NCBI GenBank assembly: GCA_964636295.1
Contig: CAZWQY010000005.1
Span: 47,496-111,495 of the forward strand
Length of the DNA stretch: 64,000 nucleotides
Direction of reading: 5' to 3'
Source: an uncultured Lentisphaeraceae bacterium
GTDB lineage: Bacteria; Verrucomicrobiota; Kiritimatiellia; RFP12; UBA1067
A program made the translations under genes and the position numbers. Of the stretch, positions 18,482-62,200 are shown piece after piece. How positions within the stretch are numbered: position 1 is the first letter of the stretch; each line of letters starts with the position of its first letter. The notes beneath the pieces are model-generated. The model had not been told where the DNA came from and did no database searches. It saw nothing but the letters and a program-made list of their open reading frames with translations.

Positions 18482-18517
18482 TTCACCGCGCGAGCAAGAC
18501 GGGTCAAATGGCCCTGC

Positions 18518-18554
18518 AAATTTCAGCCCTGCTGAAACAGCAGGGCTGAAATTT
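18518..18554. terminator. 17-bp perfect stem-loop after pstS
   Basis: AAATTTCAGCCCTGCTG-AAA-CAGCAGGGCTGAAATTT, with T/A-rich flanks on both sides. Confidence 0.7.
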
Positions 18555-18588
18555 TGAAAATAAAAAAGAAATGTTCTCATGCATCCCC

Positions 18589-18617
18589 TTGTATTTTCAC
18601 ATGATTTCAACTATACT
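18589..18617 (+). promoter_or_regulatory. Sigma70-like promoter of the dinJ-yafQ-type operon
   Basis: TTGTAT-17 bp-TATACT. SD GAAAGGA precedes ATG 18648. Confidence 0.6.
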
Positions 18618-18647
18618 ACACCAGTTTTCACGAAAGGACACTTGATT

Positions 18648-18917
18648 ATGGCAAATCTCACTATTTCCATGCCGGCAGCTGACAAGGCCGCCATTTCCGC
18701 TTTCTGCGATGCGACGGGCTTCACCATTTCCTCGCTCTTCAACGTCTTCACGAAGGCCGTCTTGCGCGAACGCCGCCTTCCCTTTCAAATCATCCTGCCG
18801 GAAGTTCCGAATGCCGAGACCCGTGCCGCGATGGAAGAAGGCGACCGCATCTCCCATGATCCAACTGCGAAGGGGTATACCGACCTGAATGAATTCTGGA
18901 AGGATCTCGACAAATGA
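18648..18917 (+). CDS. RelB/DinJ-family antitoxin
   Basis: MANLTISM...LFNVFTKAVLRERRLPF...PNAETRAAMEE...GYTDLNEFWKDL. Overlaps the toxin start (ATGA). Confidence 0.85.
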   Translation: MANLTISMPAADKAAISAFCDATGFTISSLFNVFTKAVLRERRLPFQIILPEVPNAETRAAMEEGDRISHDPTAKGYTDLNEFWKDLDK

Positions 18918-19192
18918 AATACACGGTTAAGAATACTTCTACATTCAAGAAGGACTACAAGCGCGCCAAAAAGCGAGGTCTTGATCTCGAAAAACTTCGA
19001 CGCACCGTTGAACTTCTCGCGGACGGCAAGCCTCTCCCCGCGTCCCTGCGCGACCACGCTCTGACGGGCAATTGGGCACAGCATCGCGAATGTCATCTTG
19101 CACCTGACTGGCTTCTCATCTACCAGATTTACGAAAACGTCCTTGTCCTTGAATTGACGCGCACAGGTTCACACGCCGACCTTCTCGAATAA
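18914..19192 (+). CDS. YafQ-family (RelE superfamily) mRNA interferase toxin
   Basis: FKKDYKRAKKRG, DHALTGNW, RECHLAPDWLLIY, RTGSHADL. Confidence 0.9.
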   Translation: MKYTVKNTSTFKKDYKRAKKRGLDLEKLRRTVELLADGKPLPASLRDHALTGNWAQHRECHLAPDWLLIYQIYENVLVLELTRTGSHADLLE

Positions 19193-19197
19193 ATTGA

Positions 19198-20424
19198 TTA
19201 GACCCTTAGAGCATCATGCAATTCATGCAGGATGGACTTGGCTGTTCCAATGCCGTACCGATCCGCGACAGTCAACAGGTCTGCATCAGAAATGTTTTTC
19301 TGCTTCCCATTGACGGACAATTGGTGAACCCCGGCCTGCGCACTCCACGGATCTTCACTCGGAAAATCAGACCCCATTAAGTCGTAGGCGGGTGCAAGTT
19401 CCCACATTTCGCTTTCTACCGTATCATTTCCTTTATTGGCCAAAGAACGAAGGCGGAACGAGAAGTTCTTCGTGTGATCGTCAAACTCACCCGTCAGGAT
19501 ATTGAACGCCATACGGCGAAACAGTTGCTCCTGCGCCTCATATCCAAGACCCAGTTCGTCGGCTACCGTGAACAGTTGTTCGTAACGCCTGTATTCCTGC
19601 GGCGTCTCAGCCGGTAAATGAGCCATCGCCGACAGCGTCGCCAAATGGTGGCGGACACCTCCCTCTCGATCAAACCGCTTCGTCATAAAGTGCTTGAGTC
19701 CATCGAGTTCATAAAGACACGATTCGCTCATCTCAATGCCAGATGCCAACGCTTGACAATAATGAGCATATTCAGTTTCTCCGCGCCATGGATATTCCTT
19801 CCGCGTAAACTTGATGATCCAATGCTCGTAGCCTTCTGGCAACTCACAATCTCCTAAGAGGAACGTATTTTCAATTCGATTCCAGCCAATGACCGCTTTT
19901 GCCTGCGCACCACCAGCGGACGATCCGAGGCGGATGATTTCACGCAAAGCATCCTCGCCATGCACCGTCGCCAATTCGCCGTTTAAGACCCGACGAGCGG
20001 ACTCGACAAGTTTGCGCATATCTACAACTGTCGGATATCCGCCTGGACTACGATCAGGTTCGTAAGTCAAGGCTCCTAACGTCCGCTTTCCCAAATACGC
20101 CAATCGGTCAAGCGGCGTAATTTCATCTCGTCTCAATCCATGCTCAATGAGCCAATGGTCTATTAATCCCGTGCCAAATGTATCTGGAAGCGAATCCGCA
20201 AAAATCGGCGGCAACCCATTATAAGCCGCATATGGCAAATCACCAAAGACATACGGTTCGGAGCGAAGCGGCATCATCAGCGGCGCAATCTCAATGCCAG
20301 ACCTGAGAAACGCCTTGTCGTAGCGAAAGGCATAAACGCCCCGCCGAGGAGATTCGACAAGCGTCCCCACGCGCCATCCCCACAGCGAGACATTAAGACG
20401 CGCAACATGTCGAAACACCGTCAT
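19198..20424 (-). CDS. HipA-family toxin kinase with N-terminal couple domain
   Basis: FADSLPD.FG, LAYLGKRTLGAL, SSAGGAQAKA, WIIKF, TKRFDR, DDHTKNFSF, APAYDL. More AT-rich than the flanks. Confidence 0.9.
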   Translation of the reverse strand: MTVFRHVARLNVSLWGWRVGTLVESPRRGVYAFRYDKAFLRSGIEIAPLMMPLRSEPYVFGDLPYAAYNGLPPIFADSLPDTFGTGLIDHWLIEHGLRRDEITPLDRLAYLGKRTLGALTYEPDRSPGGYPTVVDMRKLVESARRVLNGELATVHGEDALREIIRLGSSAGGAQAKAVIGWNRIENTFLLGDCELPEGYEHWIIKFTRKEYPWRGETEYAHYCQALASGIEMSESCLYELDGLKHFMTKRFDREGGVRHHLATLSAMAHLPAETPQEYRRYEQLFTVADELGLGYEAQEQLFRRMAFNILTGEFDDHTKNFSFRLRSLANKGNDTVESEMWELAPAYDLMGSDFPSEDPWSAQAGVHQLSVNGKQKNISDADLLTVADRYGIGTAKSILHELHDALRV

Positions 20425-20759
20425 ACTCTTTCCGCTCCCTTCGGCTGCCGCACCAGTGCCAGATGACGCCTCTGCGGCGAGGCTCGCTGGCGTTTCTTCG
20501 GTTCAACGCGATCAAACAAGGCATCGTCTATTTCCGGCGGAGCAATTCCCAAAATCCAGTCTGTTCGGCGAAGTGATCGGCAGACCTCGAGAAGCGTGAC
20601 CGTCGAGGCGTTTTTTCCTCCTTCAAGATTTCGAAGCGCCGTCAGGGAAATCCCGCTGCGCGCCGCCAAGGTTTCCAACGACAAGTTTGCCGCCAACCGT
20701 GCCGCACGTACGCTTTCACCCAAAGCCGCCAACATTTCGCTCCGTGTCTGATAAATCAT
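20421..20759 (-). CDS. HTH (XRE/HipB-like) antitoxin
   Basis: LGESVRAARLAANLSLETLAARSGISLTALRNLEGG. Stop overlaps the hipA-type start. TGCTATAAT at 20791-20799. Confidence 0.82.
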   Translation of the reverse strand: MIYQTRSEMLAALGESVRAARLAANLSLETLAARSGISLTALRNLEGGKNASTVTLLEVCRSLRRTDWILGIAPPEIDDALFDRVEPKKRQRASPQRRHLALVRQPKGAERV

Positions 20760-24075: not shown

Positions 24076-25170
24076 TCAGTTGATCCGAAGCGGCATCAGC
24101 ACGTAGAGGAACGGAATCGAGCACTTGATCACGGCCGGCGAATGTCCGTCCGTCAAGTTCATGGTCACCTCATCGTCGTCAATCGACTTGAGGCAGTCCA
24201 TCACGTAGGACGGGTTGAACAGAATCTCGATCTTCTCGCCGGCGTACTTGATCGGCACTTCGTCCTTCGCCTCGCCGATGTCGGACGCGGCCGACGTGAC
24301 GGTGAGCTTTCCTTCCGAGAAGATGAGCTTCGTCGAATGCGCCTCGTCCATCGTCATGACGCTCGCGCGATCCAGCGCATCCAGCAACAGCTGGCGATCG
24401 ACCTCGATGCGCTCCTTCGGCTCGACGGGAATGACCTGACGGTAGTTCGGGTAGGCGTCGTCCATCAGCTTCGAGTAGATCAGCACGCTTTCGAGCTTGA
24501 AGCAGATCTGCGACTTCTGAACCATCATCGAGAGGTCGCCCTCGCCGTTCAGCGAACGCTGAAGTTCGCCCACGGCCTTCGACGGCAGGATGATGTCCTT
24601 CTCCGCGTCCTTCGGAAACTCGATCTCCTGCTCGACGAGAGCCAGACGGCGACCGTCCGTCGCGACCATCGTCAGCTTCGAGTCCTTGAAGCTCAGGAGA
24701 ACACCCTTGAGCGTCCGGCGCGTGTCGTCCTGGCTCGCCGCGTAGGAGACCTTGCGCAGCATGTCGCGGAACGTCGCCTGCTGAATCGTGTAGACGAACG
24801 CCTCCTCGTCCTGCGGCAGCTTCGGAAACTCGGATTCGGGAAGGCCCGCGACCTTGAACTTCGCATGCCCCGCGCAGATCGTCGCGCGATCCTTCGCGTC
24901 CGTCTCGAACTCGACCTCGCCCTCGGCCACTTTCGAGATCGCGTTGAAGAGAAGCTTCACGGGAATCGTCGTGCTGCCTTCCTCAAGAGCCTCGCACGGA
25001 CAGACGGCCTTGATCGAGATGTCGAGGTCGGTTGTCGTCATGACGAGTTCCTGACCCTTGACTTCCAGGAGAACGTTCTGGAGAATCGCGAGCGAAGCCT
25101 TTCCGCCAACGATGTTCTGGACGGACTTCAGCCCTTCGAGGAACTTGGAGCGAACGATCTTGAATTTCAT
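24076..25170 (-). CDS. dnaN: DNA polymerase III beta sliding clamp
   Basis: MKFKIVR, ILQNVLL, TTDLDISI, TRRTLKGV, VATDGRRLA, YPNYRQVIP, FNPSYVMD, YVLMPLR. Start at ATG 25170. Confidence 0.97.
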   Translation of the reverse strand: MKFKIVRSKFLEGLKSVQNIVGGKASLAILQNVLLEVKGQELVMTTTDLDISIKAVCPCEALEEGSTTIPVKLLFNAISKVAEGEVEFETDAKDRATICAGHAKFKVAGLPESEFPKLPQDEEAFVYTIQQATFRDMLRKVSYAASQDDTRRTLKGVLLSFKDSKLTMVATDGRRLALVEQEIEFPKDAEKDIILPSKAVGELQRSLNGEGDLSMMVQKSQICFKLESVLIYSKLMDDAYPNYRQVIPVEPKERIEVDRQLLLDALDRASVMTMDEAHSTKLIFSEGKLTVTSAASDIGEAKDEVPIKYAGEKIEILFNPSYVMDCLKSIDDDEVTMNLTDGHSPAVIKCSIPFLYVLMPLRIN

Positions 25171-25200
25171 TGTCTTTTCCTTCTGATGCGTCGTGTCGTT

Positions 25201-25437
25201 GAATTGTATCAAATACTACTAATTAAAGATAGAGTGATTTTTATTAGTATTAGGTTTGTTAATTGTGTTGACAAGTCGCGCACACCCCTTTAAAAACAGG
25301 CGGAACATCGCCTTCGCCCTGTTGACGGCACATTCGACATCCTAATGACGGACGTTGACGAATCGTCGTGCGCTGTTCATTCCTGTTCATAACTTGCCAA
25401 GTTGTCTTCACCCTGTTGTCAGTTCGTCTGCCAGTTG
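25201..25437. other. Candidate oriC unwinding region between dnaA and dnaN
   Basis: AT-rich 25201-25265. On the minus strand, box TTGTCAACA (25266-25274) is followed by trio-like TAATACTAATAA (25241-25252). Further box-like 9-mers at 25320 (CCGTCAACA), 25374 (GAATGAACA) and 25384 (TTATGAACA). Confidence 0.7.
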
Positions 25438-26856
25438 TCAATCGAGGTTGTCCTTGAGCGAACAGCCGAATTCGGCCAGAACTTCCTTGAGTATCGACTT
25501 GAGATCTGGTTCGACGTCGAGCCGTTTTTCGATGTTCTTGACGCCATGGAGAATCGTCGCGTGCGTCTTGCCGAAGGAACTGGCGATTTCCGGAAGGCTT
25601 CGCGTCGTGTACTTGCGTGAGATGTACATGGCCATCTGGCGCGGCGTGACGAGGGACTGCGTTCGCTCGGCGGAGAGAATCTGGTCGATCGAGACGTCGA
25701 ACCGCTTTGCGACGGACTGCTGAATCTCTTCGACGGTCAGCTTGCGCAGGGACTTCTCCTTCTCGATGTAGTCGCGCAGCATATGTGTCAGCACGTCGTT
25801 CGTGAGCGTCGTCGTCGATTCGACCATGCGGAAGATGCGGACGCGGTTCAAGGCCCCTTCCATCGCACGCACATGGCTCTTGATCGTGTCGGCGATGAAT
25901 TCGAGCGCGCTGTCGGGAATGGACGGCACCATCGTCTCTGACTTCTTCTTCAGAATCGCGAGGCGCGTCTCGTAGTTGGGCGACTCGATTTCCTGCACCA
26001 TGCCGCCCTCGAAGCGCGAGATGAGGCGCGTCTCGATGGACGGCAGATTCTTCGGCGCGACGTCGGATGTCATGACAATCTGGCGTTGCGCTTGCTGAAG
26101 GGCGTTGAAGGTGTTGAAGAACTCTTCCTGAAACTGCTTGCCCTTCTGAAGGAACTGCACGTCATCGACCATCAGGAGATCCATCTGTCGATAACGCTTG
26201 CGGAAACTCTCGAGGTTGTTGTTTTGAAGGGCGTTCACGTATTCGTTCAGGAACGTCTCGGCCGTGAGGTAGCAGATGTTCAGCGCGGGATTCTTCTTCT
26301 TGAGCGCATTGCCGATCGCCTGCATGAGGTGCGTCTTGCCAAGGCCCGTGCCGCCGTGGATGAAAAGCGGATTGTAGCCACTCTTGCCGGGCGTCGCGAC
26401 GACGCCTTGTGCGGCGGCAAGCGCCCAGCTGTTCGACTTGCCGCTCACGAAATTTTCGAACGTGTACTCCTCGTTCAGCGGCATGGTCGAGGCAAGCGTC
26501 GAGGCCCTGGCCGATGTGCGCGGCGGATTCGGCGGCGGAGCGGGAATTTCCACTGGAACGACGACCGGCGGCTTGGCCCGTTCGCTTGTGCGAAACTCAA
26601 TGTCGATCGATCCTTCCGACGAAACGAGCTCAAGGCACTTCTTCAGCTTGTCCGAATACTTGTCGCGCAGGAAGTCTGCCGTGTAGGCATTCGTGAGAAA
26701 AATGACGAAGCGACCGTTTTCGCGCGTGACGGACGTGATCGTCGAGAAATAGCGCTCGACCTGACCGCGTTCTTCGGCGGACGACAGTGTGGAAAGGTAG
26801 ATTTGCATCGCCCTTTCCCACGTTTCCTTTGATTTGATGTCGATGGTTTCGCTCAT
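25438..26856 (-). CDS. dnaA: Chromosomal replication initiator DnaA
   Basis: YTFENFVSG.SN, YNPLFIHGGTGLGKTHL, LMVDDVQFL, EEFFNTFN, RLISRF, VRAMEGAL, PRQMAMY. Start at ATG 26856. Confidence 0.98.
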   Translation of the reverse strand: MSETIDIKSKETWERAMQIYLSTLSSAEERGQVERYFSTITSVTRENGRFVIFLTNAYTADFLRDKYSDKLKKCLELVSSEGSIDIEFRTSERAKPPVVVPVEIPAPPPNPPRTSARASTLASTMPLNEEYTFENFVSGKSNSWALAAAQGVVATPGKSGYNPLFIHGGTGLGKTHLMQAIGNALKKKNPALNICYLTAETFLNEYVNALQNNNLESFRKRYRQMDLLMVDDVQFLQKGKQFQEEFFNTFNALQQAQRQIVMTSDVAPKNLPSIETRLISRFEGGMVQEIESPNYETRLAILKKKSETMVPSIPDSALEFIADTIKSHVRAMEGALNRVRIFRMVESTTTLTNDVLTHMLRDYIEKEKSLRKLTVEEIQQSVAKRFDVSIDQILSAERTQSLVTPRQMAMYISRKYTTRSLPEIASSFGKTHATILHGVKNIEKRLDVEPDLKSILKEVLAEFGCSLKDNLD

Positions 26857-26883
26857 TTTTCTCTGACACTCGTGAATCCTAAC

Positions 26884-26979
26884 ATAATACCATAAATTTG
26901 ACGCACGTGGCAAAAGGAGAAATCAACGCCTGTCTTCAAGTTATCAACATGAGATGTTTATAACTTGAGAGTATCCACG
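26884..26979 (-). promoter_or_regulatory. dnaA promoter with upstream DnaA-box-like sites
   Basis: TTGCCA-18 bp-TATTAT with extended TGG. TTATCAACA at 26941, inverted TTATAAACA at 26955-26963, GTATCCACG at 26971. Confidence 0.6.
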
Positions 26980-27001
26980 AATGAACACGAATTTCATGAA
27001 T
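26976..27001. repeat. Short CACGAAT tandem repeat right after the mnmG stop
   Basis: CACGAAT 26976 and 26986, CATGAAT 26995. Same motif family as 401-421. Confidence 0.55.
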
Positions 27002-27002
27002 T

Positions 27003-28898
27003 TTAGACATGCCCGCGCTTGATGAGGACGGCGAGCACGGCGATGTCGGCCGGATTGACGCCTGGAATGCGGCTTGCCTGGGCGAGGGTTTCCGGGCGAT
27101 GCTTCTTCAGTTTTTCGCGGCTCTCATAGCGAACGGCTGTGCATTTGTCATAGTCCAGCCACTGTGGCAGAACGAGGGCTTCGTCCTTCTTGGCTTGTGC
27201 GGCGGCCTTTTCCTCTTGCGCGATGTACGGGGCATACTGATGCATAATCAACGCTTCTTGATTTATCCGCCCTTCGCGTGTGATTTGGTCGCACGAGCGC
27301 GTGTCAAGTTCCGTTTGACTCTTTCTCCCTCGTTGTGCGAGATCAGCGACTTTGGCTTGAATGGTTGTCCATTCGTCTTCAATGGCGGCAAGGGTTGCCT
27401 TTGGTAAAATGTCCACGCGCTTGGCGGCGGCGAGCAGACGATAACAGGCGTTGTCCTGGCGAAGAATCAAACGTCGCTCAGCGCGGCTTGTAAACATGCG
27501 ATAGGGTTCATCCGTACCCTTCGTGACGAGATCGTCGATCATCACGCCGAGATAGGCATCCTGTCGGCTTAAGATGAATGGAGATTCTTTTCGGACGGCG
27601 AACACGGCATTGATCCCTGCGAGAATGCCCTGTCCTGCCGCTTCTTCATAGCCGGTTGTCCCGTTGATCTGTCCCGCAAAGTAAAGTCCAGCAATTCGCT
27701 TCGATTCAAGGGTATGGCGAAGTTCACGCGCATCAATGCTGTCGTATTCGATGGCATAGGCGTACGCCAAGAACTCCGCTTCTTCAAGTCCTTCAACGGA
27801 ATGAACCATGTCACGCTGAACCGTTTCAGGAAGCGAGCAACTCAATCCATTCGGATAGATGATGTCCCCACGGCTGTCTTCAGGTTCAAGAATGACATGG
27901 TGATGAGGTGCATCCGAAAATCGGACGATCTTATCTTCGATGCTGGGACAGTAGCGAACGCCCGTTCCACTGATTTGACCACCATAAAGAGATGACTTGT
28001 CGAGGTTCGAGCGGATGATTTCGTGCGTTCGGCTATTCGTCCGCGTCATCCAGCAAGGAAGAATGGGCAGATTGTTCCATGTGGAACACAGGTGGAGGCG
28101 GTCAGATGTGGCTGTTCCACGTGGAACACAGGTGGAGGCGGTCAGATGCGGTTGTTCCACGTGGAACACAGGCGGATGAGAACCCGTGTTGGAAAAATCC
28201 GTATGTTCCACGTGGAACAGCGGGCGTGGTGTGTCTCCATCTTGCCGAATACAGCGCGAAAAGTCGCAGGTCGAGGCCTTGAGACGCGGAGGTGTACCTG
28301 TTTTTAGACGAATCAACGCGAATCCGAGATCTTCAAGATTGCGCGAGAGCAGATTGACGGCGGGACGGCCATCGCCGCCGCTTTCTTGGCTTTTGTCACC
28401 GATCCAGATCCGTCCACGGAGAGTTGTCCCGGTCGTCAGAATGACGGTTTTCGATGAAATGATTCCGTTGTTTTCGGTCTGAACACCCGTGATGCGTTGC
28501 GCGGCATCCGTCCGAATGCCAATGACGGCATCTTCAAGAACTGTCAGATTCTCCTGTGCCGCGATGACAGTCTGCATTCGTTCGGCGTATTCCTTCTTCG
28601 CACACTGGCAACGTGTCGCCCAGACGGCCGGCCCACGACTTCTGTTGAGCGTTTTCGCCTGAAGGGCGGTTTGGTCGGCGTTCACGCCCATTTCGCCGCC
28701 AAGGGCATCCAGTTCCGAAACAAGGTGGCTCTTGGCAAGACCGCCGATTGACGGGTTGCAAGGCATTCTGGCAATTGCGTCACGCTGTGTGGTGACGAGC
28801 AAAGTGCGTGCCTTCATGCGCGCGGCGGCGAGAGCCGCCTCGACGCCGGCGTGTCCACCGCCCACGACAAGAACCTCAAAGGCATCCATCAGTTTCAT
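27003..28898 (-). CDS. mnmG: tRNA uridine-5-carboxymethylaminomethyl modification enzyme MnmG (GidA) with an internal parS-derived insertion
   Basis: [73 protein letters not shown]. Start at ATG 28898, 6 nt after TGCTATAAT. Confidence 0.96.
28073..28219. repeat. Cluster of four parS sites (16-bp palindromes) inside mnmG
   Basis: TGTTCCATGTGGAACA 28073-28088. Perfect TGTTCCACGTGGAACA at 28113, 28153 and 28204. The first three sit in a 40-bp tandem unit. Confidence 0.92.
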
Positions 28899-28904
28899 GA
28901 CCGA

Positions 28905-29120
28905 ATTATAGCACATTCTCAACAGGATTGTGAACAAAAAAGATACAGAGATTATGCAACAGATAAAAGGCTATTTCTTCATAAATAATGCGGAATATTT
29001 ATGTTTTTGTCATTTTTAATTTTTGTCAAGGGAAAAGATGTCAAATCATGTCTACACTTATTGAAAAGTTATCAACAACGCCTCTCCAACTTGCTCTTTT
29101 TAGCCGAATTATGCTATACT
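28905..29120. promoter_or_regulatory. AT-rich divergent promoter region with DnaA-box-like sites at the gene-strand switch
   Basis: -10 TGCTATAAT (minus, 28905-28913) and TGCTATACT (plus, 29112-29120). TTCTCAACA 28916, TTGTGAACA 28928, TTATCAACA 29069. Very AT-rich at about 28965-29030. Confidence 0.65.
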
Positions 29121-29129
29121 TCTTGACAC

Positions 29130-29987
29130 TTGAAAGTCATCTTCCTATTCATTGACGGGGTCGGCATCGGGCAGTCCTCTTCGGAGAATCCCCTGAATGC
29201 GGAGGTCTGTCCGACGTTGTGGCGTCTCTTGGCGCGGCACGCGAAGCCGATTGACGCCTGCTTGGGCGTCGCGGGCGTCCCGCAGTCCGCGACCGGGCAG
29301 GCGACGATGTTCACGGGCATCAACTGCGCCGAGGCGGTTGGCCGTCATTGCGAGGGTTTCCCCGGCCAGGAACTTCGGCAGATCGTCACGCGCGACAACC
29401 TCTTCCTTGAACTGAAGAAGCGCGGGCGGCGCGTGAAGTTCGCCGACGCCTATCTCGTTGAGTCGGCGGACGAACTGGCGGATCGGCGGTTCAAGTCCGT
29501 GACGACGGTGATGGCCCTGACGGCGCCGGAGACCGTCTCGACAATTGCAGACCTTGAGGACGACAAGGCCCTCTTGCAGGATCTCACGCGCGAGACGATT
29601 CAGGATCGCTATCCCGACATTCCCGTCATTTCGCCGTCGCGCGCGGCCGAGCACCTGTTTCGCCTCGCGCGCGCGAACGATCTGACGCTCTACGAGTTTT
29701 TCCAGACGGACGTCTCCGGGCATTCGATGGACTACGCGCGCGCCTGCGCCGTGCTGCGCACGTACGACCGTTTTCTGTCCGCGCTTGTCCGCTACACGGA
29801 GGCGGCGGACATCACGCTCGTCATGACGTCCGACCACGGCAACATCGAGGCGCTGGGCGAACGCGGTCACACGCGCAACCCCGTGCCGTTCATCGCCTAT
29901 GGCCCGAAGGAGAGGTTCTTGCGCGACCGGGTCGCGTCGCTCGTCGACGTGACGCCGGCCTTGCTTGCGGCTTTCGATGCCGTGTGA
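29130..29987 (+). CDS. Alkaline-phosphatase-superfamily metalloenzyme (iPGM-like)
   Basis: IFLFIDGVGIG, PQSATGQ, TD.SGH, TSDHGNIE, HTRNPVP. TTG start. Confidence 0.8.
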   Translation: MKVIFLFIDGVGIGQSSSENPLNAEVCPTLWRLLARHAKPIDACLGVAGVPQSATGQATMFTGINCAEAVGRHCEGFPGQELRQIVTRDNLFLELKKRGRRVKFADAYLVESADELADRRFKSVTTVMALTAPETVSTIADLEDDKALLQDLTRETIQDRYPDIPVISPSRAAEHLFRLARANDLTLYEFFQTDVSGHSMDYARACAVLRTYDRFLSALVRYTEAADITLVMTSDHGNIEALGERGHTRNPVPFIAYGPKERFLRDRVASLVDVTPALLAAFDAV

Positions 29988-38411: not shown

Positions 38412-39866
38412 ATGAACGCGAATCTAATACGCTTGGTAGATGAATTGCGGAAGCAGTTGCGCGAGACGTCGTGGATTGAGTTTAAGCATGAGAATTACAG
38501 GCCCGACATGATTGGTGAGGATATCAGCGCGCTTGCGAACGCGGCGGCATATGTCGGGCGGTCATGCGCGTACATGGTTTGGGGGATTCATGATGAGACG
38601 CATGAGGTCTGTGGCACGAAAGAGGATTTTCGATTATTGCGTGTTGGGAATGAGGAACTTGAAAATTGGCTTCGGCATAATCTCTCTGATAACGCCGACT
38701 TTGATTTTGCGTGTGTTGACTATACGTCAGATGTGCGCGTAAATGTATTGAAGATTCGGCCCGCAATGAGTTTTCCAGTTGCCTTTAAGAAGGAGTCCTT
38801 TATTCGTGTCGGGAATTACACGAAGAAGTTGCGCGATTATAGGGAAGTTGAGGCACGGCTATGGGACAGATTGCGTGATGCCAATTTTGAGAATCAGCAG
38901 GCCTTGTCCGATTTGACATTGCAGGAGGCCCTTGGCAAACTCGACCTTGATGTCTATTTTGAGAAGACAAAAACGCCAATGCCGTCAACAATAGAGGAAC
39001 TGGGGCGGCTCATGTGCGCCGAAAAGATTCTGTATCGACAGGACGACGGTCTTTATGCGATCACGAACCTGGGCGGTACGCTGTTTGCTCGGGCTATTTC
39101 CGAGTTTCCGCGAATCGCGCGCAAGGCCGTTCGCGTTATCCAGTACAAGGGTGAGAATCGCATGCACATGATGCGTGAGTATACTGGAACGAAAGGGTAT
39201 GCTGTTGGGCTAGATGGCTTGATTAACTATTTGCAGGCGATGACGCCTGCGGATGCCTCGATTGTCGGCGCCTTTAGAGATGCCAAGTACGCCTATCCGG
39301 AGGTTGCCCTACGCGAACTTGTTGCCAACGCACTTATCCATCAGGACTTTTCGATTAGGGGTTCAGGCCCCCTCATAGAAGTGTTTTCCAATCGGGTGGA
39401 AATCACCAATCCAGGTGAGTGCAAGATTGAACTAGACCGTATCATCGACAGTCCGCCTTGGTCGCGCAACGAGGATCTTGCGGCCTTGATGCGACGAATG
39501 CGGATGTGCGAAGAGGCGGGTGGCGGCTGGGACAAGGCCATCCTTTCGTGTGAAGAGCAGTTCTTGCCGGCGCCTCGGATCGAGAACTACAAAACGGCGA
39601 CCAAGGTGTCGTTGCATGTGGCCGAGTGTTTTGCGGACATGACTCTCGAAGACCGGCTTTGGGCGTGCTACACGCATGCGTGCATTCTTTTCCTTGACAG
39701 AAAACATCTGACGAGTTCGTCCGTCAAGAAGCGATTCGGGTCAGCAACCATTGCCGCATCAACGGTTTCCAAGTTGCTGAAGAAAGCGGTTGAGCGAGGC
39801 TACATTCGGGTTTTTGACCCGGATGTCGGAGATCGCGCCGTCAGTTATGTGCCGTATTGGGCGTGA
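38412..39866 (+). CDS. AlbA_2/Schlafen-like N-domain + HATPase_c_4 (RecG C-terminal-like) + winged-helix protein
   Basis: ETSWIEFKHEN, ISALANAA, YMVWGIHDE, ALRELVANALIHQDF, RVEITNPG, RNEDLAALMRRMRMCEEAGGG. Visibly lower GC than the flanks. Confidence 0.8.
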   Translation: MNANLIRLVDELRKQLRETSWIEFKHENYRPDMIGEDISALANAAAYVGRSCAYMVWGIHDETHEVCGTKEDFRLLRVGNEELENWLRHNLSDNADFDFACVDYTSDVRVNVLKIRPAMSFPVAFKKESFIRVGNYTKKLRDYREVEARLWDRLRDANFENQQALSDLTLQEALGKLDLDVYFEKTKTPMPSTIEELGRLMCAEKILYRQDDGLYAITNLGGTLFARAISEFPRIARKAVRVIQYKGENRMHMMREYTGTKGYAVGLDGLINYLQAMTPADASIVGAFRDAKYAYPEVALRELVANALIHQDFSIRGSGPLIEVFSNRVEITNPGECKIELDRIIDSPPWSRNEDLAALMRRMRMCEEAGGGWDKAILSCEEQFLPAPRIENYKTATKVSLHVAECFADMTLEDRLWACYTHACILFLDRKHLTSSSVKKRFGSATIAASTVSKLLKKAVERGYIRVFDPDVGDRAVSYVPYWA

Positions 39867-53967: not shown

Positions 53968-54280
53968 CGCGGAGGTCGCGGAGACCTTGGCGGCGCGTCT
54001 GCGCGGACTCATCGGGCGGCGGAGCCTGCCGCCGGGGCGCGGGCTGCTCATTCCGCGCTGCAACGCAATTCACACGCTCTTCATGCGCTTTGCGATTGAC
54101 GCGACGTTCCTGGATCGGCAGGGGCGCGTCGTGAAGGTCGTGCGCGACATTCGTCCGGGGCGTCTCTGGGTCTGGGGCGGCTGGCGCGCCGCGAGCGTGC
54201 TGGAAACGGCGGCGAACGCCCGGCGTGGCGGCACCGCTTGCGGGGATTTGGGGGGATGTGGTATAATGCGCGGAGAATGA
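53939..54280 (+). CDS. DUF192-family protein
   Basis: AETLAARLRGLIGR, GLLIPRCNAIHTLFMRFAIDATFLD, VLE. Confidence 0.82.
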   Translation: MRHVTVHGIDAEVAETLAARLRGLIGRRSLPPGRGLLIPRCNAIHTLFMRFAIDATFLDRQGRVVKVVRDIRPGRLWVWGGWRAASVLETAANARRGGTACGDLGGCGIMRGE

Positions 54281-55470
54281 AAAAAGGCTTTACACTTGTC
54301 GAGCTTCTGATTGTCGTCGTCGTGCTTGTCACGCTCATGACGATTTCGTTTCGGATCACGGGTGCGGGGGGCGAGGCTTCGGCGCGGAACCGGACGGTCA
54401 ATCGGATGCAACGTCTTGAAAACTGCCTGTCGGGCTATTATGCGGCCTATGGATGCTACCCGCCCGTTCGTCTCCACGGTAGCCGCGACTATACGCTTGA
54501 TGTCGATGCGCATGGCATTCAGCAGGTTGGTTCAGCCAATTCGGGGCTCAAGGGGAGCAGTTCGTCGTCGAGTGGCGGGTCTCGGGCTTCGGAACTGAAC
54601 TGGGAGCGTGTGCGGGCGGCTTGTCGGTCTCAGCCAATCGGCATGAGTTATCCGTTCACGAAGTCGGGCATCCAGAACTATATCAATAAAGTCTCGGATA
54701 TGCTGATCAAGCGTTCGCAGTCGAACGATTCGAAGGATGCCGCGTATCGGGCTAATTCGACTATCCTTTCCAAGGGGTTTCGGGCGATTACGGACGAAGG
54801 CATGCTCTCTTCAAAGCGCAACGACGAAGAGTGGACGGATGTTCAGATTTTCAAGTTCGGCGTTCTCAGTTACTTGCTGCCGCGCTACCTCATCATGCTG
54901 GGTGGCGAATCCAACATGGATCAGATCTATCAAAACCAGAAGTCCTGGACGGCCAACAATCGGTTGCCGTGTCGGTTTGAGGACGGCGTGCCGTATTCGA
55001 GTTGGGGCGCCGTGAACGAAGATGTGCGCAGATACAAGTGGAAGGTCTCAGTTCTTTCGTCGCAGGCGACGTGTGCGCGCTGGTTGCCGAATCTTGAGCG
55101 GACCGTCCGCACCCAGTACGATTTTGAGGCGTATGGCATCCAGTTGCGCGACGCGGCGGATTCCTATGCGAACGTCTCTGCCAGCAATCCGGAACCCGAA
55201 CTGTATTCGACCGAGTCGCAGGGCGGGGCCGGGAGTTCCAGCGGCGACCAGTATGTCTTGGACGGCATGACGGTCGTGGACGGTTGGGCGGAGGAATTCT
55301 ACTACTACTCGCCGCCGCCGTACCAGAGTTACATTCTCTGGAGCGCGGGCAAGAACAAGAAGACGTTTCCGCAATGGGTGTCGGACGAGGAGATTCGGAA
55401 ACTCCCGGTCAGCGAACAGTCGACTGTTCTGGAGTGGAAGGGCGACGATATCGTGAAAATGAGCCATTGA
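54277..55470 (+). CDS. Prepilin-type N-methylation domain protein (GspG-like C-terminus)
   Basis: MKKG/FTLVELLIVV class III signal. C-terminal DGWAEEFYY...LWSAG. TGGTATAAT 9 nt upstream. Confidence 0.85.
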   Translation: MKKGFTLVELLIVVVVLVTLMTISFRITGAGGEASARNRTVNRMQRLENCLSGYYAAYGCYPPVRLHGSRDYTLDVDAHGIQQVGSANSGLKGSSSSSSGGSRASELNWERVRAACRSQPIGMSYPFTKSGIQNYINKVSDMLIKRSQSNDSKDAAYRANSTILSKGFRAITDEGMLSSKRNDEEWTDVQIFKFGVLSYLLPRYLIMLGGESNMDQIYQNQKSWTANNRLPCRFEDGVPYSSWGAVNEDVRRYKWKVSVLSSQATCARWLPNLERTVRTQYDFEAYGIQLRDAADSYANVSASNPEPELYSTESQGGAGSSSGDQYVLDGMTVVDGWAEEFYYYSPPPYQSYILWSAGKNKKTFPQWVSDEEIRKLPVSEQSTVLEWKGDDIVKMSH

Positions 55471-55490
55471 GAATCACAAGGAGTGCGGAA

Positions 55491-56126
55491 ATGTGTGAAA
55501 AATCGAATCATTTGGGCGCGAAGCCTGGTTTCACCTTGGTCGAGATGCTGGTCGTGGTCGGCATCCTTGCGGTGTTGATCGGCGCGAGTCTTTCGGCCTT
55601 CACCTCGACGACGAAGAAGGCCCAGAAGGCAAAGGGCCAGGAACTCGTGCACAACGTGGCCACGGCCTTGGAGAAGATCTACCAGGAGGAGGGGGCATGG
55701 CCGCGTCGCATTCTGAACGGCAGCAATAGCGAGAACGGCATCGACGAGAAGGTGGCTTATGCGTTGGCCAAGCGCAATGCCCTGTCCCTTTCGTACGACG
55801 ACAGTTCGAAGAAGACCACGGCTCTTGACCAGTGCGGTGTCGTCTCGCCGTGGGCACAGGACGTGATTCGCCGGAAGAAGGGCCAGGGCGTGAGCGAATC
55901 CATGAAAGTTCCCTCTGGCGGAACGATCAAGACGCATCGTCTGCGCTATGCCGTCGATACGGATGGGCGCGGCTTCGTGACGGCGAACGTCGAAGGCCAG
56001 TCCGTGATTATTCGCGGTTCGGTTGCCGTCTGGTGCGCGGGTTACGACGGCAAGTTCGAGAAGTACAAGGACGGTCTCCGCAAGGACGACATCTACAGCT
56101 GGGGTCGTGATCAGGTGAAGGAGTAA
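55491..56126 (+). CDS. Prepilin-type N-methylation domain protein
   Basis: KPG/FTLVEMLVVVGILAVL, SPW, VWCAGYDGK...DDIYSW. Confidence 0.85.
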   Translation: MCEKSNHLGAKPGFTLVEMLVVVGILAVLIGASLSAFTSTTKKAQKAKGQELVHNVATALEKIYQEEGAWPRRILNGSNSENGIDEKVAYALAKRNALSLSYDDSSKKTTALDQCGVVSPWAQDVIRRKKGQGVSESMKVPSGGTIKTHRLRYAVDTDGRGFVTANVEGQSVIIRGSVAVWCAGYDGKFEKYKDGLRKDDIYSWGRDQVKE

Positions 56127-56130
56127 AGAA

Positions 56131-56760
56131 ATGAAGAAGGGTTTTACAATTGTCGAATTGCTGGTGGTCGTCGCGATTATCGGCATTCTTCTCGGCATCG
56201 TTTCAACGGCAACGATCGGTTCGATTCGCAATGGACGGGCAAAGCGCGCCGAGGCCATGTGCAGCGTCCTCAGCCAGGCGATTTCCTCCTACTACGCGCA
56301 GAAGGGGGAATGGCCGACGGCAATCGAGAACTACGCCAAGAACATGGGCGACAGGGAGACGGTCACGTTGTCGGCCAATGACGCGGACAGCGTTTTCCGC
56401 GAGATCGTCAAGAAGTCGGTTGGTTCGGGCGCGACGATGCATCTTCTGGATGCGCAGGCGCTCTTTGTCGCGGAGGCGAGCAAGATCAAGAACAACAGCG
56501 AGGGCTGCTACGATAACCACGACGACAAGACGTATGACTCCTACTGTGGCGACAAGCACTGTGTCAATGGGCGTGATTTCTCGAACGCGACGCAAAAGGG
56601 CGGGAGGAATCGTCTCTCGGTCGATAACATGGCGTTTGGCTATCAGGGCACGCGGGCGGGCAAGTTCTGCCGCTTCTGGATCACCTACAACGGCCGTACC
56701 GATTCGGTGAACGTGTCGCGGAAGAATCCGGGCAAGGAGTATCCCGAAGATTGGGAATGA
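56131..56760 (+). CDS. Prepilin-type N-methylation domain protein
   Basis: MKKG/FTIVELLVVVAIIGIL, YYAQKGEWP. Confidence 0.85.
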   Translation: MKKGFTIVELLVVVAIIGILLGIVSTATIGSIRNGRAKRAEAMCSVLSQAISSYYAQKGEWPTAIENYAKNMGDRETVTLSANDADSVFREIVKKSVGSGATMHLLDAQALFVAEASKIKNNSEGCYDNHDDKTYDSYCGDKHCVNGRDFSNATQKGGRNRLSVDNMAFGYQGTRAGKFCRFWITYNGRTDSVNVSRKNPGKEYPEDWE

Positions 56761-57686
56761 CGATGAGAAAAGCCTTCACCTTGATGGAGCTGATGGTCGT
56801 CGTGGGAATCATGTCATTCCTCGGCGTCGCGGCGGTCGGCGGCTACAATGCACTTCAGCGCGGCATGGCAGAGCGTGGTGCCACGGCGGTTGCGACGTCG
56901 CTTCTCCAGGCGGCGAAGGAGCGGGCGATGATCGATCGCGTGCCGACCGTCGTCTATTGCTATAACCGGCTGGTGCGTGCGGCGACGGACGACGAGAACG
57001 CGATTGTCGTCGGCGAAGCGGTCGCGGTGCGGCGCGCCGGGCGCGTGACGTGGGCGCGCGGCGACCTGATTGCCGACGAGTTTGCCGATCTCGCCAGCAG
57101 CTATGATGTCGTGCCCGACGAGAGCGATGCCAAGGAGCGGAAGGGCATGAAGCTTTGGCGTTTTGACGACGACAGGATCAGCGACATGCGCTATTCGGTT
57201 GTTGCCGATGCCGTGGTGATGCTGGATGGTGACGTTGGCGGAACGACCTATCGTGGGTGGGCGCTTGACCCGACGGCGGACGAGAGTAGCACGCTGGTGA
57301 ATGGGCAGACCGTTTCGGGGGACGGGGACATGACGGACTTTAGGTTCAAGAATACGGGATCGGGCGAGGGCGAGTTGCACATTCAGGCCTATGCATTTGC
57401 CAACTTGAAGTCAAGCAAGTATGAGCCGAGCGCGTGGACAGTTGGCGATGGCTACGGCTTCGAGTTTGCGAACGTTCAGTTGCCGAACGACTTTGTCTTT
57501 GGTGGCGGGAATGTGCCGAGTCAGGTCGGGGACGTTAGCTTTGTCAAGGCACTCTACTTCGACCCCGATCAGTCGGGAAGTGACGATTCGGTCGATATCT
57601 ACTTCTGTCGCCCCGATTCTGGCGGCAATCCGAAGCCAGACCACAAGGCCGGTACGGCGACAAGCCAGGAGGATGCGAAGATATGA
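56757..57686 (+). CDS. Prepilin-type protein (GspH/FimT-like)
   Basis: RKA/FTLMELMVVVGIM, AKERAMIDRVPT. ATGA overlap with the previous gene. Confidence 0.82.
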   Translation: MTMRKAFTLMELMVVVGIMSFLGVAAVGGYNALQRGMAERGATAVATSLLQAAKERAMIDRVPTVVYCYNRLVRAATDDENAIVVGEAVAVRRAGRVTWARGDLIADEFADLASSYDVVPDESDAKERKGMKLWRFDDDRISDMRYSVVADAVVMLDGDVGGTTYRGWALDPTADESSTLVNGQTVSGDGDMTDFRFKNTGSGEGELHIQAYAFANLKSSKYEPSAWTVGDGYGFEFANVQLPNDFVFGGGNVPSQVGDVSFVKALYFDPDQSGSDDSVDIYFCRPDSGGNPKPDHKAGTATSQEDAKI

Positions 57687-58270
57687 GGGCGATGAGAAGG
57701 GGTTTCACGCTCGTCGAGGTCAACCTTGCCATTTTCATCATGGCAGCAGGTGTCCTTGCGATGGTTTCGCTGTATTCACTTGGCATGCGCGAGAGCCGTC
57801 AGTCGGTTGAGGATGTGGCGGTCGCGGGCTATGCAGATGCCGTCTTTGCGCCGCTTGTCGCGAAGCTGTCGGCAACGAACATGACATGGAGGGGGTGGAC
57901 GTCGATCGGCTCGACGCCACAGGGAGAGGGCGACAAAGTCTGCGATGGCGTGACGCAGGGCGGAAAAGGCTGGTCGGACTATGTCCAGAAGGTTGGATCG
58001 GATTCTTCGGGGCTGTATCGGGTTGATTCCGGCTGCACGGCCAAGGCACAGCAGGCGTTTCAGGAGATTGCGAGCGCCTCGTTGAAGGGAAGTCCGAGCC
58101 TTGCGATTTCGTGGCCGACCTTGCCAAGTGACTACTTCTACGGACTTGTGGCAACGCGCACGGGGGCGACCATTTCGCTCGCATTTCGTGCGTCGCGGCG
58201 GCGGGATGCCTTGATGAGCCAGCCGGTCTACTACACGGAGGTCCACTATCAGGGGAGGGATGACGAATGA
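57683..58270 (+). CDS. Prepilin-type protein (GspI/PilV-like)
   Basis: RRG/FTLVEVNLAIFIMAAGVLAMVSL. Confidence 0.82.
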   Translation: MRAMRRGFTLVEVNLAIFIMAAGVLAMVSLYSLGMRESRQSVEDVAVAGYADAVFAPLVAKLSATNMTWRGWTSIGSTPQGEGDKVCDGVTQGGKGWSDYVQKVGSDSSGLYRVDSGCTAKAQQAFQEIASASLKGSPSLAISWPTLPSDYFYGLVATRTGATISLAFRASRRRDALMSQPVYYTEVHYQGRDDE

Positions 58271-58779
58271 GGCGCGGCTTTACCATTTTGGAACTCCTGG
58301 TCGCCTCGTTGCTGCTGTCGATGCTGGTCACGATTCTGACGATGCTTTTCAACCAGTCGTCCGTTGCCTGGACGGCCGGGCTGTCGAGCGTTTCCGACTT
58401 GAGCGAGGAGCGGATGTCGCTCGGCATCTATCATGATGTGGAGGATGACTTGTTGCCGGGCATCACGGAACAAGGTGTTCGGGGCGGGGATTCCGATAAT
58501 CGTCGTCTTGACTATCGCACGGTTTCACTGTGGCAGAAGGGTTCCAAGAATAAGTTGCGTAGTGGGCAACGGGCCTTTGACCGCGCAGACTGGGGGTCGG
58601 CTTCTGTGTGGGTGACGGACATCAAGAACGCGGCGAAAGGGACTTTACAGAATTCGGGATCGAGCGTCCAGCAGCGAAATCGCGAGGGCGGAGTCGTCGT
58701 TGGTGTCTGGAGTGCGGGACCCGACGGGAAGTGGGATACGGCGGATGACATCAATACCTTCCCGGAGGAGGTGGACTGA
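58267..58779 (+). CDS. Prepilin-type protein (GspJ/PilW-like)
   Basis: RRG/FTILELLVASLLLSML. C-terminal VWSAGPDGKWDTADDI. Confidence 0.82.
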   Translation: MRRGFTILELLVASLLLSMLVTILTMLFNQSSVAWTAGLSSVSDLSEERMSLGIYHDVEDDLLPGITEQGVRGGDSDNRRLDYRTVSLWQKGSKNKLRSGQRAFDRADWGSASVWVTDIKNAAKGTLQNSGSSVQQRNREGGVVVGVWSAGPDGKWDTADDINTFPEEVD

Positions 58780-59237
58780 TGAAGCGGGCGTTTACGTTGC
58801 TGGAACTGCTTGTCGTGATCGCGATGATCGCGATTCTCGTTGGCGCGGTTGGTTCGGGCATGAATCAGGCGCGTCGCCGTGCGAAAATCGCCAAGGCGAC
58901 GCAGGATGCGAAGGAAATCACGAATGCGATTCTCGGCTTCCGCAACTATGCGAAGGATCGTTCGCTTGTCAATTATGACACGGGCGGCTGGAAGGAAACG
59001 ACCGAGGGCAACCTCAGCTTGATTCTCGGTGGCGTGAAGTCCGAGAGCGGTGCCGATGTGCCTGTCCTCTACAATGCCCAGTTGCGTGGCGGAAAAGTCG
59101 TCGATCCGTGGGGGCGGACATACCGATACAGGATTCAGAAACTGACAGGGGAAAGCGATGATTCGGGGAAGCCCACGTTTGTGCGCGCCCCCAACTTGCC
59201 TAACTTCTACCGGCTGACGGACGAGGAGCGTCAATGA
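58779..59237 (+). CDS. Prepilin-type protein (GspG-like)
   Basis: KRA/FTLLELLVVIAMIAIL, VDPWGRTYRY. Confidence 0.85.
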   Translation: MKRAFTLLELLVVIAMIAILVGAVGSGMNQARRRAKIAKATQDAKEITNAILGFRNYAKDRSLVNYDTGGWKETTEGNLSLILGGVKSESGADVPVLYNAQLRGGKVVDPWGRTYRYRIQKLTGESDDSGKPTFVRAPNLPNFYRLTDEERQ

Positions 59238-62200
59238 AAAAAGGTTCTGCCCTGCTGATTGTCTTGGGACTGCTGTCGTTCATGGTGGTCTCCGCCGTGA
59301 GCTTTTCGATCTACATGCGTCAAAGCCGATTGCCGTCAAGTTACCTTCGGCGCAATTTGGCGGCGCGCCATCTGGTGCGGGCGGCGTTGGCGCGCGCGAT
59401 TGACGAACTGGAGGGGGCGTATAACGATGACGCGAACTGGGGCAAGTACGAGTTGTCCGAGACGGATGTTCGTAGGGCGTTCTACGGCATTTATGACGAC
59501 CCCTATCCGGGGTGTGGTTACAAAGTAAACAACAACAGCCAAGATGACGGTGATTTTTGGTTCCGGCGCGTGTTCATGCCGTTCGGGCCGACGAGGTTCG
59601 CCGAGGCGACGGTGCCGACGCTGACGCTGGAAGCACTCGCCTACCTGCCGCCTGCGATTGTTGACGACGTGCGAAAGTTTTCGCGCTACACGCGCACGGC
59701 GGCGTGGCGCTCGTTGCCGTACGATGCGGGCCGCTATGCCTACACGGCCGTTAACGTTTCAGACCTTTTCGACATCAATCGTTTGCGCGCGGCAGACCCG
59801 CGTGACTCCGGCCCGAATCGCGTTTCTCTTGCGGCGCTCTGCTCGCAGACGGTGGGTGATCCGTTTGACATTGACATGTCGCGGGCAACGAGGCTGGACA
59901 CGCTGCTGCAGAAGTGGTCGGGGAGTGGCTACAACACACCCTTCGTGTCGCTGGCGGATTTCAACCTGTTGTCTGGGACGTCCGATTTTACGCCGTTCAT
60001 GGATTACATTGGCAAGACTTCGACGAAGCTGCTGAAGAATGGCGCGGCTGCGGCGGCAAATGGGCTGTTTGTTACCGACACGTGGTTCCCGGCCGCGACG
60101 TCAATTTATGAGCCAGCGTCTGGCAAGTGGGTTCCTGCGTCCAACGGGACGGGCGTGATCTATGACTTGGCCGGCGCGCATCAGCCGTTCCGAAACTTTG
60201 ACGCGCAGCAATTCTCGCAGGTTCTGACAAGTCGCAACACACAGGACAATGTCGGTGAAATCTTCGAGAAAAACCTTGGACTTGGGTTGGTGGCACTTTA
60301 TGACTACCTTGACAGCGACTCGAAGCCGATTTCGTTGGCGCTGCCAACGGTGGAGGCCGTGCCGATGGTTACGGGCGTCAGCTGTCCGGCGATGCTGAAG
60401 CCTGAAATTGAGTCGCGCGAGAAAGACGAGGTCACTTTTGAGATTCCGAACGAAAACTATGACCCGGACGATCCTGCGCAGCCGGAGAAGTGGAAGATCA
60501 AACGGTCGTGGTCGAAAATGACCTTCACGGGATTTGGCAATCGGGTGCAGACGAAGGTCTTGATGACCTATCCCTTTAAGCGCATGAAGACGACGCAGCG
60601 TTTCAACTCGAATGTCTCCTTGCGAGGCGTCTTGCGCGTCTTTGCCGCGCCGACGGGCATGGGCTGTCGTCCGAGCGACGATTCGGGTTTCCTTTATCCG
60701 GCACAGAACGTTTGGACGAGCGGCGGTCGCGCGCAGAATGGCGTGGCGTCGTTCTACTGCAATGCGGCTTCGCCGAGTCCGGGGGCGGTCTTCAACAAGG
60801 ACATTGAGAAGACGGCGGACGCCATTGACGATTCAGTTAGCTTGACGTTCGATTGCACGGGCATTGACATGCCAATCATGTATGTCGTCAAAGAAGAGTG
60901 CACGAACGGACAGGGGCCTGATGGCTTTGAGGCGAAGACCTATCTGTCGCTGGACGGTCTCAAGAACAGCGATGCGACGTTCCGACCGCTGACTGTCAAT
61001 GGCACGGTTGACGAGGCCTGGAACAATTTGCAGGCGAGGCCCGCGCATGCGTTCAAGGAGGAGCAGCTCGGCGTCGTGACCGATTCGCTGTCTGGGTTTG
61101 CGTCGTCTTACAAGCTTTATGCGGCGGTTTGGCTACAGGTTTGGGATGGTAATGATGTGGTCGACATGGCGCCGGCCTCGATCAAGGACGACATCGAGTG
61201 GCTCGGTGCAAGTACGACGGCACAGGCGGTCAATGCGCGCAAGTGTGGTGACGGGACGCCGCTCCTCAGCTTCTGTGCCGACTATGACGTGAAATGGGCG
61301 GAATCGATGGCGGAGGATCTTAAGAACCCTGCGGAGTTTAGCCAGTGGAAGACGCTCTATGCGGTTGATCCGCGTTACAACTTTGCGCCAGAAGACTGGT
61401 TCTCGAAAAATTCCAGCACGACGGTTTCGACGGGCGAATGGTCAAATGAGATTGGATTGGGTTCGTCGTCGGTCTTGCTGGGGCAGGGTGGTCGTGACCG
61501 CGACATCTTCATGTTCGTCTCCGACCAGGAGTATCTGCAGGCGATTGGTGAACTCCAGTTCCTGCCGGTCATGGGAGTCATGGACGGAAGCGAGAATTTC
61601 CTGAGCGGCGCTTATTCGCCAGATTTCAATGGAAACGCCTTTTCCTTGCGCACAGGCGCGACAAGCGGTGCTTTTGCGAACGGCGGCCGTTTCTGGCGGA
61701 CATATACGGCCTATGACAACGGCGATGGGACGGATTCGATCTATGCCCTCGCGTACAACGGTCAGGAGATTCGTTTCCAGTCGGGTGTCGGCGGCTTCAA
61801 GGTGAACCCGTATTCGGACGACAACCGCGTTCTTGCGGCGGCTTTGGTCGGCACGCCGTTTGACTATTATGTCGCTTCGACGAACGATAACCAGCGACAG
61901 GTTGGAGGAAAGCGAAACGATCTCATCGGGCAGATTAATCTGGACAGCAGCTTGAGTCGTTATTCCTTTGGCGAGGCCGATCTCGCGAAGATGAGTCCGG
62001 ACGATTTGCTGGCTGTGATGGATTCGTTTAAGGCGACCTTTGGCAGTCGGGCGAAGGATTCGAATCTGGCGAATGCCGCCGACTGGGCGGGGGGCTTTGA
62101 TGACTTGGTCTGGCAGGAGTTGAATGCGAGCAAGATCAACGATGTCAACGACCGTTTTATGGGGGTTGAACTTAACGCGGACACGAAACCTCTTCACCAG

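Follow-up and report, generated by a model that had tools for sequence, protein, structure and literature searches.

Can the centromere of a bacterial chromosome reside in the coding sequence of a housekeeping enzyme? This question is raised by a stretch of 64,000 nucleotides (hereafter the window, 64 kb) from an uncultured Lentisphaeraceae bacterium of the Kiritimatiellia, in which the gene mnmG (gidA) contains four copies of a 16-bp palindrome that resembles parS, the binding site of the partition protein ParB. An earlier note, made from the sequence alone, had proposed that mnmG doubles as the chromosome centromere. We conclude that the four palindromes are very probably genuine chromosomal parS sites, which form the origin-proximal centromere of this gut bacterium and are housed in a permissive, disordered loop of the MnmG protein. 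The comparative support for the centromere proposal is strong, as it comprises the identity of the sites, their conservation in the same loop in two phyla and the occurrence of the same doublet upstream of parA elsewhere, but no ParB was found in the DNA examined.

The four palindromes, three of them perfect and one with a mismatch, were located at exactly the positions given in the earlier note, with spacings of 40, 40 and 51 bp (Table 1), and Tandem Repeats Finder (TRF) recovered the 40-bp tandem unit to which three of them had been assigned. The array matches the TGTTNCACGTGAAACA-type consensus palindrome. The exact form, TGTTCCACGTGGAACA, which three sites have and from which the fourth departs by 1 mismatch, is letter-for-letter identical to parS2 and parS3 of Pseudomonas aeruginosa; ParB affinity is highest for this perfect palindrome, and one such origin-proximal parS suffices for proper segregation in that species (PMC4368675). 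When up to three mismatches were allowed, the four array sites were the only matches in the window. The mean number of such matches expected from dinucleotide-preserving shuffles was 0.18, and none of 100 shuffles reached four. No further parS was present in about 15 kb of flanking extensions of the window, which brings the DNA scanned to about 79 kb. An Rfam search of positions 26800-29300 returned no credible RNA family, the two hits being sub-threshold eukaryotic families (20 bits versus 40 and 90).

The earlier note had named an assembly artefact as an outcome that would overturn its proposal. The exact 637-aa MnmG is indexed in 40 blocks of a public collection, and 24 contigs were inspected. 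The identical four sites with spacings of 51, 40 and 40 bp recur in separate assemblies from Logan and ENA (six contigs), and these independently assembled copies of the same array rule out an artefact.

The gene in which the array lies appears to encode a working enzyme. The minus-strand frame 27003-28937 stays open across all four parS, and we place the start at ATG 28916 because the exact 637-aa product is recorded in public assemblies. The Pfam GIDA profile matches with E = 2e-143, the match being broken in two at profile position 227/228; the domain scores (PF01134, 478 bits; PF13932, 82 bits) exceed the curated thresholds, and comparison with the solved MnmG structure 2ZXH gives E = 2e-149. 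The motifs GGGHAG, PCNPSIGG and RYCPSIEDK are intact in this protein and invariant in 67 relatives, and in alignments with MnmG of Escherichia coli and Aquifex the flavin adenine dinucleotide (FAD) motif coincides, as do the two conserved cysteine motifs. We take the roles of the dinucleotide-binding and cysteine motifs to be those familiar from E. coli MnmG. Because the conserved motifs are intact and invariant among relatives, the protein looks functional.

The alignment to solved MnmG structures falls into two blocks (residues 7-236 and 286-513). Between them lie 49 residues, compared with about 10 in E. coli MnmG, so that about 39 are extra. In an AlphaFold2 model built from 67 relatives the enzyme folds (predicted template modelling score, pTM, 0.78), and residues 227-282 are without secondary structure and have a predicted local distance difference test score (pLDDT) below 50. 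All four parS-encoded peptides (positions 234, 251, 264 and 277) fall within this low-pLDDT segment. Translation bore out the three-frame reading that had been noticed before: read in the mnmG direction the sites specify FHVEH, FHVEQ, VPRGT and CSTWN, and all three codon phases are used. The palindrome contains no stop in any frame of either strand and can accordingly be placed in any codon phase. Since this surface loop is predicted to be disordered and its length is hypervariable, the enzyme would tolerate any peptide there.

We then asked how widely the arrangement is shared. Eleven Kiritimatiellia-type relatives, mostly gut and rumen metagenome-assembled genomes (MAGs) with MnmG identities of 45-64%, were scanned with one genome per species, and ten of them have two to four parS (sites with up to two mismatches were counted; nearly all are exact). 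The sites of these ten are all inside the same MnmG loop, the frame is open every time, and the 6 kb on either side of mnmG contain no parS. A protein search listed 120 MnmG clusters (57-97% identity, 582-909 aa), or 121 when the other protein of the cluster to which the window MnmG belongs is counted. Among the matches listed, 119 of these 121 close MnmG proteins have between one and six parS-encoded pentapeptides in the loop. The comparison with relatives that the earlier note had called for thus delimits the loop and yields a copy number of one to six sites across the lineage, among the matches listed.

To place the sites in a wider context, we also scanned public metagenome contigs for two exact copies 10-40 bp apart and obtained at least 120 loci. 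Among the matches listed, ParA/ParB are encoded at 58 loci, and in 57 of these 58 the doublet precedes parA by 14-1159 bp (median 165 bp). The remaining doublet loci among the matches listed comprise 15 with the doublet beside mnmG but outside it, 12 with the doublet inside mnmG and 35 with other contexts. The parA-adjacent doublets indicate that the doublet is the usual partner of parAB. Half of the loci with an intragenic doublet (six of 12, among the matches listed) were not Kiritimatiellia-like. A profile of these six led to 120 listed clusters, of which those named by NCBI are, with one exception, Verrucomicrobiae or Verrucomicrobia. In this Verrucomicrobiae clade the same loop contains FHVE[HQ] motifs in all 120 clusters listed, one to three per cluster and exactly two in 102. 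By comparison, parS-encoded pentapeptides occur in none of 69 control MnmG proteins from other phyla, and the 69 control loci (760 kb) contain two parS in total, both well outside mnmG.

Two observations on these relatives deserve mention in their own right. On a 361-kb Verrucomicrobiae contig (L210, 10704-10809) the only two parS within 22 kb are both in mnmG, the GC skew (skew of guanine over cytosine) switches sign at mnmG, and dnaA is not nearby; mnmG together with parS may be a better origin marker than dnaA in this clade. A third MnmG group (L091, L118, L191), 55% identical to the Verrucomicrobiae group, likewise carries a pair of FHVE[HQ] sites in this loop.

Conserved pentapeptides at constant positions might also be explained at the level of the protein: FHVEH and CSTWN would then serve a function as peptides in an MnmG loop specific to the lineage, and their likeness to parS would be incidental. 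Residues F234, H235 and E237 are indeed invariant in the 67-sequence alignment, and the motifs sit at fixed loop edges. However, the same 16 nucleotides are read in three frames and give three unrelated peptides. Grouped by the codon position at which they start (1, 2 or 3), the 26 exact 16-mers from the window, which contributes three, and ten species are distributed 12, 9 and 5. These 26 sites show no nucleotide difference and hence no synonymous change, whereas synonymous positions elsewhere in mnmG are saturated, each of the invariant residues tested elsewhere in the gene using 2-6 codons. The sequence between the parS sites cannot be aligned among relatives. In addition, the loop is predicted to be disordered, and 57 other loci among the matches listed have an identical doublet ahead of parA, in DNA that is non-coding. 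Selection is on the DNA, not on the protein. Protein-level selection on the peptides is contradicted by the use of three phases and the absence of synonymous change, and we regard a peptide function as extremely improbable.

The loops of many relatives share two sites, here called bookends, one at the PRPL-F edge (FHVE[HQ]) and the other, read CSTWN, abutting NLPELPC. The filler between them extends from 4 residues to more than 200. In the minimal relatives the arrangement is FHVEQ-x4-CSTWN, that is, two sites in a loop of about normal length, and consequently no net insertion is required to accommodate them: the loop was overwritten by sites first and expanded second. The earlier estimate of roughly 40 added amino acids stands as a figure relative to E. 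coli MnmG, but the insertion is not a prerequisite for the sites. Internal sites have been gained and lost, and the decayed copies observed (VPCET, VLHGT, CSMWN) are confined to internal positions, exact copies predominating at the bookends. Site 28113, for example, is perfect in the window, decayed in 97%-identical sisters and absent in 89% relatives. Despite this, the loop length is nearly constant in the nearest relatives (75-78 aa), which argues against simple stepwise growth by 40 bp; a better fit is local duplication together with replacement or conversion. The notion that copy number grows by 40-bp units under a frame-keeping constraint is weakly supported. It agrees with the range of one to six sites and with a frame that is always open, but the nearest relatives have no 40-bp indels, and no length variants were seen in the six contigs or in the 90%-identity cluster of the window MnmG (two members, each 637 aa).

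The turnover of internal copies bears on a further explanation, according to which the palindromes are selfish or neutral repeats in a permissive loop, either resembling repetitive extragenic palindromic (REP) sequences or miniature inverted-repeat transposable elements (MITEs) or created by slippage, and are bound by nothing or by a protein other than ParB. The array does include head-to-tail copies of one unit inside a coding sequence, as in a minisatellite, with a 40-bp tandem repeat; the expanded loops of relatives are made of repetitive filler, and no ParB was found locally. What makes this explanation very unlikely is that no other copies exist in about 79 kb, that the exact 16-mer is kept at one position across two phyla while its surroundings turn over, that its sequence is that of a proven ParB site, and that decay is confined to internal copies while the bookends are mostly exact.

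The filler itself is varied. In the 909-aa MnmG of one relative (L214, 10833-11501) two perfect bookend parS are 653 bp apart, and the filler between them contains a 132-bp tandem repeat in two copies as well as short CTCCGTGC and CACGGATTGA repeats that are mutually inverted. The protein loops of P0023, P0033 and P0037 contain the same repeated modules of about 40 aa. For the long loops of L007 and L010 TRF reported no tandem repeats.

The position of the array relative to the replication origin was examined next. As the earlier note had stated, the array lies about 2.6 kb from the spacer between dnaA and dnaN, and the cumulative GC-skew minimum falls in that spacer. DnaA boxes of the E. coli consensus type show no enrichment (4 versus 3.1 expected), so the candidate oriC was located by GC skew and richness in adenine and thymine only. 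The spacer (25171-25437) has several TGTTGAC/GTCAACA-like repeats, and the same TTATCAACA boxes occur at 26941-26949 and 29069-29077, in both intergenic regions flanking mnmG; these repeats and boxes may be lineage-specific DnaA boxes. The linkage to the origin is conserved: mnmG adjoins dnaA and/or dnaN in nine of the 11 Kiritimatiellia-type relatives.

On a rival reading, ParB binds the array but the selected role is mainly regulatory or architectural, for example SMC loading at the origin, or a roadblock or silencing of the mnmG-dnaA-dnaN unit by ParB. Such an effect on the unit would couple the assembly of the partition complex to the expression of the replication initiator. In line with such a role, mnmG, dnaA and dnaN are co-oriented with a gap of only about 146 bp between mnmG and dnaA, the order recurs in five relatives, the window scans revealed no parA near the array, and ParB-dependent repression beside high-affinity parS is documented in P. 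aeruginosa (PMC5521831). Against it, the sites persist although dnaA is divergent from mnmG in three relatives and is not nearby in Verrucomicrobiae. We give a mainly regulatory role a small chance; regulation and segregation are not exclusive of each other, and the present data do not separate them.

Several points count against the centromere interpretation and have to be weighed together. The most important concern the partition proteins. As had been noted earlier, parA and parB are missing from the window: a six-frame motif scan of the 64 kb gave no credible ParA/ParB, and with Spo0J and Soj as probes tblastn gave no hit in the window, in L001-L011 or in L087. The detection of ParA/ParB on the 58 control loci validates these probes. 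Neither parA nor parB appears in the Pfam gene lists of the contig extensions (right, about 6.7 kb; left, about 8.2 kb) or within 10 kb on either side of mnmG on the 361-kb Verrucomicrobiae contig and a 53-kb Kiritimatiellia contig, and the same is true of every examined locus with intragenic sites. Because the sites are identical to known parS and are conserved, we infer that they are bound by ParB and that the array functions in segregation. Moreover, the mismatch in site 28073 alters the core, and core-mismatch parS bind ParB less well in P. aeruginosa (PMC4368675). Finally, in the most distant Kiritimatiellia relative (L011, mnmG at 848-2860, 47% identity) the loop exceeds the normal length by about 70 aa but lacks parS, and three exact parS (2953, 4883, 4947) lie downstream of mnmG in DNA without convincing open reading frames. 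Residence in mnmG is thus not obligatory, and L011 may represent a lineage in which the sites left mnmG or never entered it.

With respect to the wider group, ParABS homologues have been reported in the verrucomicrobium Akkermansia muciniphila (PMC10197239). Our literature searches found nothing published on ParABS for Kiritimatiellia, and the genome paper of Kiritimatiella glycovorans does not mention ParB. Tetranucleotide similarity, used for choosing a verrucomicrobial parAB locus as a seed, gave no discrimination.

If the array is the origin-proximal centromere, its operation can be envisaged as follows. ParB dimers encoded elsewhere in the genome would recognise each 16-bp palindrome, close as clamps dependent on cytidine triphosphate (CTP) and slide over the adjacent few kb, including dnaA and the likely oriC. 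ParA and/or SMC would then act on the resulting complex, so that sister origins separate. The peptides FHVEH, FHVEQ, VPRGT and CSTWN would be passengers of a constraint on the DNA rather than functional protein motifs. The filler between the bookends would expand, with sites gained by local duplication (here of the 40-bp unit) and lost by decay. As for the history of the arrangement, it is plausible that it began with the widespread mnmG-(rsmG)-parS-parA-parB layout, as found at the control loci, parAB being no longer adjacent in these lineages of the Planctomycetes-Verrucomicrobia-Chlamydiae (PVC) group, while the sites were retained inside mnmG. A bolder version, which we consider rather unlikely, would make the MnmG loop the principal and perhaps only chromosomal centromere in Kiritimatiellota and a large Verrucomicrobiae clade. 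The sites would have stayed in a single transcription unit from a time before the two phyla separated, because their position matters, for example if ParB loading is gated by transcription of mnmG(-dnaA) or if ParB clamps control expression of the initiator, and the ParB-bound palindromes would drive the expansions to more than 200 residues.

A parS inside spo0J is known from Bacillus subtilis. In P. aeruginosa PAO1 nine of the ten parS are within coding sequences (PMC4368675), so that intragenic parS as such are already established. The intragenic sites of model bacteria share with the present ones that parS overlaps a reading frame harmlessly and that such sites could be mutated synonymously. 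There, however, host genes vary by species and hold one site each, whereas here the host gene and the loop are fixed, one to six sites are present, conserved peptides are dictated and the loop expands to more than 200 residues. The chromosomal parS systems in general (the Spo0J sites of B. subtilis, parS1-4 of P. aeruginosa and the Caulobacter cluster) have in common with the array the 16-bp palindrome and a small, near-perfect cluster within a few kb of the origin. They differ from it in that here all sites lie in one loop of one gene, the placement is conserved across two phyla and parAB is not nearby.

The canonical origin layout is mnmG(gidA)-rsmG(gidB)-parA-parB with parS upstream of parA, as in the gidAB-parAB region of P. 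aeruginosa (PMC13438810). In both cases parS is physically tied to mnmG near the origin; among the matches listed, 15 control loci have the doublet next to mnmG, either immediately outside the gene or no more than a few hundred bp away. The two differ in that the canonical doublet is intergenic and adjoins parA, whereas the present sites lie within mnmG and away from parAB. The repABC replicons, with parS within or between the rep genes (PMC9040568), also embed a centromere in the coding region of a conserved operon, but these are plasmids or chromids with a different parS sequence and RepB as the partner, and the host genes are the partition genes themselves. Full-text searches found no account of a centromere cluster lodged permanently in a single loop of a housekeeping enzyme, and this in two phyla. 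The parS element, its mechanism and its intragenic occurrence are already known; what we did not find described is that a complete cluster stays within the same protein loop in both phyla and affects the sequence and length of the protein.

Table 1. Positions of the parS sites, of mnmG and of the neighbouring origin features in the window.
Feature	Position	Strand	Description
parS site 1	28073-28088	.	TGTTCCATGTGGAACA, one mismatch (core CACGTG to CATGTG); read CSTWN beside NLPILPCW; C-side bookend
parS site 2	28113-28128	.	Perfect TGTTCCACGTGGAACA; read VPRGT; decayed in 97%-identical sister proteins (VPCET, VLHGT)
parS site 3	28153-28168	.	Perfect TGTTCCACGTGGAACA; read (V)FHVEQ; begins the partial third copy of the 40-bp repeat
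parS site 4	28204-28219	.	Perfect TGTTCCACGTGGAACA; first in mnmG direction; read (L)FHVEH; overlaps the conserved PRPLF loop edge; N-side bookend
40-bp tandem repeat	28073-28176	.	2.6 copies, 93% matches (TRF); unit of one parS plus 24-bp spacer
mnmG (gidA)	27003-28916	-	637 aa, start ATG 28916; intact; GIDA and SAM_GIDA_C domains
Variable-loop segment of mnmG	28062-28238	-	Residues 227-282 with pLDDT <50; residues 237-285 without counterpart in solved MnmG structures
dnaA	25438-26856	-	472 aa as called in public assemblies; directly downstream of mnmG, same strand
dnaA-dnaN spacer	25171-25437	.	About 41% GC; cumulative GC-skew minimum; candidate oriC
dnaN	24076-25170	-	364 aa

Elsewhere in the window, a patch of lower GC content (0.49-0.55) at about 18500-20500, about 5 kb from the origin, contains a gene for a HipA-like kinase (minus strand, 19198-20424) next to a RelB/YafQ-type toxin-antitoxin pair, as labelled by Pfam on public gene calls. 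A 484-aa gene at 38412-39866 with SLFN/AlbA_2 and HATPase_c_4 domains coincides with a sharp dip in GC content (0.53 versus about 0.66 on either side) and was probably acquired horizontally. At about 54000-63600, and running on into L087, small proteins with prepilin-type N-terminal methylation motifs are clustered and are followed by unannotated proteins of 1096, 343 and 1003 aa; this cluster looks like a type II secretion locus or a pilus-like one, with large components that are unknown.

The array is a natural example, and an unusually clean one, of protein sequence being dictated by a DNA element that acts in cis. The invariant FHVEH and CSTWN peptides, which are not under protein selection, are a warning for the motif-based annotation of proteins. 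The disordered loop, which has grown from 0 to more than 200 extra residues, appears as a safe harbour for regulatory DNA. Transcription, translation and the loading of ParB clamps would share the same 150 bp, which makes conflicts between transcription and ParB sliding directly testable. Lastly, mnmG with its sites may allow the region of the origin and centromere to be located from a single gene in metagenome bins of the PVC group, in which the origin does not always lie at dnaA.

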